Sequence record: PQ666539
DNA length: 64,000 bases
Source: Shigella phage sb1
Reading direction: 5' to 3' (one strand)
Shown piece by piece: positions 40,005 through 40,568 of this stretch (positions are counted from its first letter, which is position 1; each line of letters begins with the position of its first letter). Under the pieces are notes generated by a model. That model had not been told where the DNA came from, made no database searches, and was given only the letters and a program-made list of their open reading frames with translations. Made by a program: the position numbers and the translations under genes.

Positions 40005-40568
40005 TTATTTATCTAGTTTAGTTATTATAGCTTCTGCAGCAGCTTTTAGCTTAGATGCGGTGTTAATACGATTTTTAATTTCAGTATACGCATCGCCAAG
40101 AACATCAAGGCTATCAGAATAAACACTTACACTATTGCGTTCGCTATTTGAAATAGAACCTTTAGTTTTACGATCAAAATCGGTGTACACGTCTTGAAGA
40201 TCGCGGGCTGCCTTCTTTGCATCATCCAATGCATCAAGAGCTTTATTCAAAGCATTAACGTATTTTTTAGTGTCGAACATATTCTTAGAAATTTTAACAG
40301 GTGCACGTTCAGGAGTAGCTAATACAGATTTAGGAACCTGAGCGCCAGATGCCAATTTCTTAGAAATTTTGAAAAATGCTTTATTGAATTTATTTTCTTG
40401 ACTCATTGTAAAAGAACTATTATCGATGTTGTACATTTCAATAGCTTTAGCTTTCCACTTAAGAAAATCGCCGCGGTCTTTTGGGTCCAATTGGAAGAAT
40501 ACTTTAGTAAGATCTGCTTCAGATGGTAATTTTGCTGCTTCGGTTAAAAATTCGGCATAGGTTTTCAT
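40005..40568 (-). CDS. Internal-protein-like head protein with capsid targeting leader (MKTYAEFLTEA)
   Basis: ORF track; IP-type N-terminal leader with LTE-A site. Confidence 0.55.
   Translation of the reverse strand: MKTYAEFLTEAAKLPSEADLTKVFFQLDPKDRGDFLKWKAKAIEMYNIDNSSFTMSQENKFNKAFFKISKKLASGAQVPKSVLATPERAPVKISKNMFDTKKYVNALNKALDALDDAKKAARDLQDVYTDFDRKTKGSISNSERNSVSVYSDSLDVLGDAYTEIKNRINTASKLKAAAEAIITKLDK

Follow-up and report, generated by a model that had tools for sequence, protein, structure and literature searches.

The 187-aa gene and its leader

On the minus strand of the Shigella phage sb1 genome (record PQ666539), between the homolog of T4 e.8 (39731..39501) and the homolog of T4 rnaD/rnaC together with tRNA-Arg (41216..41636), lies a 187-amino acid (aa) open reading frame (ORF) whose product begins in the manner of a T4 internal protein (Ip). 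We analyzed it within a stretch of 64,000 nucleotides (nt), referred to throughout as the window. The source phage is a Tequatrovirus, closest to the records of Shigella phages sb2 and pSs-1, to which it is ~97% identical over 20 kb, and the region parallels the T4 map interval e - nudE - e.2...e.8 - rnaC/rnaD - tRNA cluster - ipI - 57B. A sequence-only reading of this DNA had placed an Ip-like ORF in the e-to-tRNA interval and had assigned it the leader MKTYAEFLTEA, an LTE-A processing site and a terminator hairpin of its own, and each of these is present as described. The features of the gene, all on the minus strand, are as follows.

40005..40568 (-): coding sequence of 187 aa, with a precursor of 20.9 kDa that starts MKTYAEFLTEA
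40539..40568 (-): capsid-targeting-sequence-like leader MKTYAEFLTE, codons 1-10, with a predicted gp21 cut after E10 (LTE-A)
40575..40579 (-): Shine-Dalgarno-like AAGGA, 6 nt 5' of the ATG, read from the sequence
40607..40614 (-): late-promoter-like box AATAAATA, matching TATAAATA at 7/8 positions and starting 46 nt 5' of the ATG
39978..39996 (-): intrinsic terminator hairpin at the end of the cassette, with a 7 bp stem and a 5 nt loop followed by CUUUUU, 8 nt past the stop codon
39972..40658 (-): the whole 187-aa cassette (box, gene and terminator), with junctions exactly after GGG(G)CTTTTT

The full-length frame is found in 164 phage records at 95-100% amino acid identity, with one more at 85%. 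Pairwise comparison of the window, DalCa, pSs-1, UGKSEcP1 and Mosigvirus phiC120 by the Nei-Gojobori method gave a ratio of non-synonymous to synonymous substitution rates (dN/dS) of 0.04-0.15 for pairs with enough substitutions. The AAGGA element is invariant across the window, DalCa, phiC120 and RB69, and all but one base of the 60 nt 5' of the ATG are identical in four phages of two genera. The terminator hairpin has a folding energy of -10.5 kcal/mol (z = -2.9), and the homologous site in DalCa is annotated as a terminator. The ORF is a real gene under purifying selection. That it might instead be a chance frame or a decaying, functionless pseudogene is suggested by the frameshift that splits the RB69 reference copy and by the amber codon in the adjacent paralog in the window, but this explanation is effectively refuted by the conservation data: the full frame is kept in 164 records with low dN/dS, a ribosome-binding site, a promoter-like box and a terminator are all present, and the family to which the protein belongs is conserved in at least six genera. 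In the RB69 record (NC_004928, L004), RB69ORF149c and ORF148c at 2936..3498 are the two halves of the split gene, and the frameshift is either a pseudogene mutation or a sequencing error.

The first 11 residues are identical to the MKTYQEFIAEA of T4 IpII/IpIII at 8 positions. The sequence-only reading would have lost its basis had the leader not aligned with known capsid-targeting sequences, and the alignment bears it out. When the N-terminal 11 residues of all 747 frames in the window that start with Met and run to 30 aa or more were compared with MKTYQEFIAEA, only the four genes with a leader of this type reached 6 or more identities (scores of 10, 8, 6 and 6, with the 187-aa gene at 8), against best scores of 4-5 in 20 shuffled windows. 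Black's mutagenesis, as presented in PMC9026906, found the first 10 residues of IPIII to be enough to encapsidate foreign proteins, with residues 4 and 7 mainly governing targeting and residues 8 and 10 governing processing. The 187-aa protein has Y4, F7, L8 and E10, and the exchange of I8 for leucine relative to the T4 leader remains inside the gp21 protease motif (L/I)-x-E. Apart from the LTE at residues 8-10, no [LI]-x-E occurs among the 187 residues, an arrangement shared with IpII and IpIII, and the protein thus has a single gp21-type site.

The leader is also retained well outside the close orthologs. A comparison of 15 leaders (3 from T4, 4 from the window and 8 from relatives) showed that 13 fit the pattern M-x-x-[YF]-x-[EQD]-[FI]-[LIT]-x-E-[ASTL], the other two being of the IpI type with a cleavage site farther downstream. 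Homologs with 20-30% identity, drawn from Mosig-, Karam-, Dhaka-, Winkler- and Tegunavirus phages and from metagenomic T4-like phages, all keep M-x-x-[YF]-x-[EQD]-[FI]-x-x-E, and the motif is retained in all 12 aligned family members. The codons behind it vary synonymously among homologs (TAT/TAC, TTT/TTC, TTA/TTG/CTA/CTC and GAA/GAG), which argues for selection on the peptide rather than on a nucleotide recombination linker.

As the sequence-only reading had counted, the window holds four genes with a leader of this type. In addition to the 187-aa gene (40568..40005) and its interrupted neighbor (41167..40694), which is described below, there is one at each of the two loci where ip genes are known.

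34493..34966 (-): gene of 157 aa with leader MKTYQEFITEA, in the canonical ipII/ipIII locus beside denV
43444..43701 (-): gene of 85 aa with the IpI-type leader MKTFKEFAAKTTITE-S (MKTFKEF...ITE-S), in the canonical ipI locus beside 57B

The DalCa homolog of the latter is annotated as "internal head protein".

Late-type signals and exact cassette junctions

The strict late promoter TATAAATA is absent in front of the 187-aa gene, where AATAAATA stands instead. This box is identical in four phages of two genera, and according to PMC1524935 the first T of the late box is A or T in most T4-like phages. Ahead of the neighboring paralog there is a perfect T4 late promoter TATAAATA (41215..41208), which starts 48 nt 5' of the ATG and directly follows the rnaC terminator. 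No sigma-70-like promoter was found on the coding strand between the two cassette genes. We surveyed the equivalent positions in both window genes, L006, KMB17, L011, JS98, CHI14 and fHe-Yen9-01 gp154. TATAAATA occurs at -36 in KMB17, at -36 in JS98 and at -38 ahead of fHe-Yen9-01 gp154, GATAAATA occurs at -43 for P0013 (the family member on L006) and at -44 in CHI14, and CATAAATA lies at -35 in the relative on L011. An ATAAATA core thus stands 35-48 nt 5' of the ATG in all seven examined cassette-heading family genes, while fHe-Yen9-01 gp153, which directly follows gp154, is without a box of its own. Across the window ATAAATA is under-represented (23 seen, against 43 ± 6 expected from dinucleotide-preserving shuffles), so that its presence before all seven genes is not an effect of composition; the full TATAAATA occurs 12 times, against 11.9 expected.

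The gene and its paralog are arranged as two successive units, and the elements upstream of the 187-aa cassette are as follows.

40659..41217 (-): neighboring cassette, consisting of TATAAATA (41215..41208), the 157-aa gene (41167..40694) and a terminator (40684..40665)
41222..41245 (-): terminator of the rnaC homolog at the upstream cassette joint, nearly identical to the 40684..40665 terminator

Three terminators in a row end in GGG(G)CTTTTT (41245..41218, 40684..40659 and 39996..39972, all on the minus strand), the first two of them nearly identical, and junction alignments reveal that the units are joined exactly past this T-run. Four alleles of the interval were seen.

T4: rnaC terminator, then the e.8 leader
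fD1: rnaC terminator, 157-aa cassette, then the e.8 leader
RB69: rnaC terminator, 187-aa cassette, then the e.8 leader
window and phiC120: both cassettes

The 187-aa gene is therefore a non-universal accessory gene that comes and goes as an exact cassette indel, as is typical of ip genes. It is missing from T4, fD1 and most Tequatrovirus records, and its full-length form occurs in 164 records compared with 778 that match the surrounding 2.2 kb. The protein of the window phage, a Tequatrovirus, is ~95% identical to that of phiC120, a Mosigvirus (10 non-synonymous differences), which points to exchange between genera.

The cassettes invite comparison with the PeSL-type mobile regulatory cassettes of T4-like phages (Arbiol et al. 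2010, PMC2839356; Comeau et al. 2014, PMC4122927). The likeness is that both are single-gene modules with a conserved stem-loop and a promoter at their boundary, gained and lost precisely at that element. The PeSLs themselves are characterized in PMC4122927 as composite promoter-terminator motifs. PeSLs pair an early promoter with a stem-loop, whereas the hairpins of the 187-aa and 157-aa cassettes are followed by a late-type box.

Several features of the surroundings were recorded alongside. A sigma-70-like promoter precedes the e.8 homolog at 39809..39837 (-), with TTTACA, a 17 nt spacer, TACTAT and a TG extension. T4 conserves this promoter, which is of the early type, and the late-type cassettes sit inserted between it and the tRNA/rnaC terminator. 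The segment 41216..41562 (-) is ~90% identical to T4 rnaD/rnaC, which encode stable RNA species 2 and 1. The tRNA cluster (41561..42388, minus strand) comprises 10 genes (Arg, Asn, Tyr, Met, Thr, Ser, Pro, Gly, Leu and Gln) and holds no segB homing-endonuclease gene; T4, by comparison, carries an inserted segB behind tRNA-Arg and has 8 tRNAs, one of them Ile. An Rfam scan of 39000..43000 returned only tRNAs at the gathering level, and Rfam has no model for rnaC/rnaD.

Family phrog_2280 and the interrupted neighbor

The sole match of the 187-aa protein in the profile library is phrog_2280, a family of "unknown function" (E = 2e-53, residues 1-181 on profile positions 1-178 of 178), which the interrupted 157-aa neighbor matches as well. 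An exhaustive phmmer search of 1.84 billion representatives gave one distant relative, P0013 (31% identity), and a search from P0013 widened the family. A tblastn search with the Enterobacter phage member P0018 then retrieved 190 further phage records, with organism names that include Escherichia, Klebsiella, Enterobacter, Serratia, Yersinia and others. The annotated rows listed for the P0018 matches all read "hypothetical protein" or "unknown function", and among the rows listed for the 354 matching records (164 + 190) none is annotated as an internal protein. All 12 aligned members match phrog_2280, and the family spans six or more genera of the Tevenvirinae; its named members include Yersinia phage fD1 g140, JS98 orf135, RB69 ORF149c/148c and fHe-Yen9-01 gp154/gp153.

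These relatives have both architecture and locus in common with the 187-aa gene. In this architecture the leader is followed by ~60 residues of conserved N-domain, then by a linker rich in Pro/Ala/Lys and a helical C-domain. In one subgroup (P0020-P0023, L011 5001..5609) the leader, N-domain and Pro/Ala/Lys linker are kept with an unrelated C-domain (...GLKVRGKYGSI...HLVELSKQSGLSY), a sign that domains have been swapped among family members. As for position, a family gene lies downstream of the tRNA block in KMB17, JS98, CHI14 and the window, and it is followed by the e.8 homolog in KMB17, JS98 and the window.

The leader of P0013, encoded on a metagenomic T4-like contig (L006, from SRR28624380), is MITFNEFLNE-S. 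Directly after it lies a gene for a 144-aa protein (2092..2526) that is unrelated to P0013, carries the leader MITFKQFLNE-S and a CATAAATA box, and contains an ART-PolyVal/DUF3990 ADP-ribosyltransferase domain (Pfam E = 1.9e-11). A leader shared by unrelated neighbors is as one would expect of a portable targeting tag, and the 144-aa protein itself looks, from its sequence, like a leader-tagged, possibly injected ADP-ribosyltransferase. ViI-like phages (Ackermannviridae) encode full-length homologs of it with ~41% identity, and one such homolog is annotated as "putative structural protein".

The neighbor of the 187-aa gene in the window encodes a 157-aa protein with the leader MKSYTQFLNEA. The sequence-only reading had called it amber-interrupted, and we did find an in-frame TAG at 41068..41066 (-), where DalCa, fD1, pSs-1 and UGKSEcP1 have Tyr34. 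Suppression by a phage tRNA was considered and ruled out, as a CUA anticodon is found in 0/10 of the window tRNAs. Given the amber codon and the lack of such a tRNA in the window, this copy is probably inactive in the window phage; translation could at best resume at Met51, giving a product that lacks the leader.

A direct comparison of the 187-aa and 157-aa proteins is uninformative over most of their length, with BLASTP aligning only the leader and hhalign only the last 23 residues. The two types are bridged by intermediates such as P0018 and fHe-Yen9-01 gp153/gp154, as can be seen in VKGIVSKYEKILALLDEIAKEG of P0018 and VKGIIAKYEAILKELLVIKTEG of the 157-aa protein. In fHe-Yen9-01 (L013, 1501..2616) both types are adjacent in the reverse order, with the 187-type gp154 first and the 157-type gp153 after it, which speaks for an old duplication. 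As judged by these alignments, the two genes are old, distant paralogs.

The paralog also provides an indirect link to the virion. The fD1 ortholog of the 157-aa protein, g140, which shares 98% identity with the intact form in DalCa, received the score "PPAP" at the strict threshold in liquid chromatography-tandem mass spectrometry of virions purified by ultracentrifugation (PMC8309999 Table S3). For a phage that carries the 187-aa gene itself, we found no virion proteome in the literature, including the papers on fPS-2/65/90 and Serratia LC53.

Proposed packaging and injection, and possible function

The predicted mature form comprises residues 11-187 (177 aa, 19.7 kDa) with an isoelectric point (pI) of 9.46, and its N-terminal peptide would be AAKLPSEADLTK, starting from Ala11. 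For comparison, the pI values of T4 IpI, IpII and IpIII are 8.9, 9.3 and 9.5. We carried out the domain and structure prediction that the sequence-only reading had proposed for the mature part. AlphaFold2 models are all-helical, with a mean confidence (pLDDT) of 63 from the single sequence and 70.6 from a 7-sequence alignment, and they predict a helical N-domain (residues 17-74), a disordered linker (80-93) and a long C-terminal helical hairpin (101-185). The mature protein matched no known domain or fold. Foldseek returned nothing below E = 0.1 against the PDB, and against BFVD it returned nothing beyond orthologs and a single distant homolog, from Yersinia phage fHe-Yen9-01; ferritin-like helical bundles (TM 0.2-0.4) were rejected as noise. 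Matches to cytochrome b562, the ALIX V domain and TraA in Pfam/NCBIfam were discarded as sub-threshold matches of the coiled-coil type, and a profile search of PDB sequences gave coiled-coil noise only. Searches with the 187-aa protein by tblastn, phmmer and hidden Markov models found solely orthologs and phrog_2280 relatives, and no characterized inhibitor. The mature domain thus gives no clue to function.

The closest known counterparts are T4 IpIII (193 aa) and IpII (100 aa). They have in common with the 187-aa protein the leader (MKTYQEFIAE-A compared with MKTYAEFLTE-A), a single (L/I)-x-E at residues 8-10 and a basic pI (9.5 and 9.3 compared with 9.46), IpIII is of similar size, and all are encoded by non-essential accessory genes with their own regulatory signals. 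They differ in showing no similarity past the leader and in their locus, as T4 ipII/III lie between denV and e whereas the 187-aa gene is flanked by the rnaC/tRNA block and e.8. The demonstrated target of IpIII is the GmrSD of ECOR17. A broader likeness is to the ipI-locus proteins, among them T4 IpI* (a GmrSD inhibitor) and Bas37_0260, which are likewise leader-defined injected accessory proteins swapped as cassettes among T-even phages. The IpI leader, however, has 19 residues and is cut at ITE-A, the ipI-locus proteins adjoin 57B, and they are hypervariable singletons, unlike the 187-aa gene, whose family is conserved in several genera.

Repoila et al. reportedly described polymorphic ipI-locus proteins, Ip4-Ip12, in 1994. 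We found no source in the literature or databases that recognizes the gene or its family as internal proteins, and a relative may possibly bear an older Ip number from that work. PMC12373910 speaks of "two Ip loci", and neither of the described loci (beside 57B, and between denV and e) holds the 187-aa gene; the leaders of the 187-aa and 157-aa proteins do not occur in the supplementary text of that paper that was searched, and no experiment was found in which the 187-aa protein was supplied or deleted to probe restriction. Known members do tend to lie in an ip locus, but such a position does not define the group.

We favor the interpretation that the 187-aa ORF encodes an accessory T4-type internal head protein, to which we assign a probability of roughly 0.75. 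Transcription would probably be late, starting at the AATAAATA box and/or reading through from the upstream cassette with its TATAAATA promoter, and would give rise to a precursor with a 10-residue N-terminal capsid-targeting sequence. This leader would dock the precursor onto the scaffolding core of the assembling prohead, where the gp21 prohead protease would trim it after LTE and leave a basic, all-helical protein of 19.7 kDa among the packaged DNA. Judged from the leader, packaging and gp21 cleavage are likely. The mature protein would then be ejected into the host along with the DNA, a step that is also likely, if a little less so, by analogy with the behavior of fusions to the capsid-targeting sequence (PMC9026906). 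Within the host it would most likely neutralize a defense against the incoming modified DNA, for example a type IV restriction enzyme, in analogy with the characterized leader proteins.

According to PMC12373910, Ip1, Ip2 and Ip3 are inhibitors of GmrSD type IV restriction enzymes, each of a different one, and according to bioRxiv 10.1101/2025.11.20.689424, Bas37_0260, a leader-bearing protein from the ipI locus of phage Bas37, inhibits McrBC, so that the characterized leader-bearing proteins block type IV restriction in 4/4 cases. The suggestion in the sequence-only reading that the four window genes form a candidate arsenal of injected anti-defense proteins fits this literature, but has to be narrowed in that the amber-interrupted gene is probably inactive. 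For the 187-aa protein itself we rate an anti-defense role, on this analogy, as a shade less than an even chance.

Several observations weigh against the favored interpretation or parts of it. The promoter of the 187-aa gene is a predicted one, and its box agrees with the consensus at only 7 of 8 positions. Moreover, T4 ipI, ipII and ipIII have no late box within 110 nt and are preceded by sigma-70-like promoters instead, so that a late promoter is consistent with packaging without being diagnostic of it, and late expression is no hallmark of the family. The fD1 virion evidence concerns the paralog and not the 187-aa gene, and it comes from a data set of low specificity, given that 113-137 of the 277 fD1 products were scored as particle-associated, including lysozyme, NudE, DenV and thymidine kinase (PMC8309999). 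The mature part has neither similarity to a characterized Ip or anti-defense protein nor a recognizable fold, although the known Ips are mutually unrelated and a missing similarity to inhibitors therefore says little about function. With a dN/dS of about 0.1 the gene is highly conserved and not fast-evolving, unlike an arms-race protein, although turnover does occur at the cassette level. Finally, in PMC12373910 seven other ip genes (ip4-10) gave no reproducible inhibition of GmrSD variants; the leader thus guarantees no type IV target and does not by itself predict one.

Two further explanations accept the gene as real and differ in what its product does. The protein might be packaged without having a specific anti-defense target, serving as a basic, DNA-associated capsid protein in charge neutralization, condensation, help with ejection or protection of ends. 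The pI of 9.46 would suit such a role, as would the Pro/Ala/Lys-rich linker of the family, which resembles histone tails and DNA-binding low-complexity segments, and lysines of T4 internal proteins contact DNA phosphates according to PMC3012670. Strong conservation across genera also suits a housekeeping-like role better than an arms race, and no fold resembling a known inhibitor was recovered. Against this, the gene is dispensable, and T4, fD1 and most Tequatrovirus records do without it; the linker is short in the 187-aa protein (~25 residues), and the leader proteins of known function are specific restriction inhibitors in all four cases. We regard this explanation as unlikely, although it deserves more weight than the one that follows.

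Alternatively, the product might be a late cytoplasmic protein that is never packaged, its leader being a relic of cassette shuffling in which a shared 5' end of the gene and its translation-initiation region served as recombination homology. Cassettes do recombine at short conserved sequences, and the nucleotides of the leader are identical to T4 ipIII at 25/33 positions. Set against this, the motif is kept at the amino acid level, with differing codons, in homologs of 20-30% identity, the residues retained are precisely the critical ones (4, 7, 8 and 10), the recombination joints lie at the terminators and outside the leader, and the paralog was detected in virions. We consider a cytoplasmic protein of this kind quite improbable, and the internal head protein remains our preferred interpretation.

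Among phage proteins that are injected to counter host immunity, those with the T4 capsid-targeting leader form the class best validated at present. Leader-tagged injected proteins of T-even phages are already known as a kind, and the proposed mechanism would hold no surprise; the 187-aa gene and its paralog would add a third Ip site and a whole family beside the two known loci. The family is spread over hundreds of sequenced therapeutic-type coliphages and over phages of Shigella, Yersinia, Enterobacter, Klebsiella and Serratia, where the listed rows read "hypothetical", and its absence from T4 is probably why it has escaped study. The 187-aa gene is a testable candidate for a new anti-defense activity, as well as for differences in host range among T-even phages that are nearly identical, and its exact cassette junctions are a clean example of the gain and loss of such genes.

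A wider proposal, which we advance tentatively and hold to be somewhat less probable than the anti-defense role of the single gene, is that phrog_2280 marks a third, previously unrecognized Tevenvirinae locus of injected proteins, distinct from the hypervariable ipI and ipII/III loci. It would consist of one ancient modular family with an exchangeable C-domain, often duplicated into two paralogs, which six or more genera would retain in the interval from the tRNA block to e.8 and which would move as cassettes of terminator, late promoter and gene. If this is true, the conservation across genera would imply a target common to many Enterobacteria, which could be a non-GmrSD defense class or a step in DNA entry rather than a strain-specific restriction enzyme.

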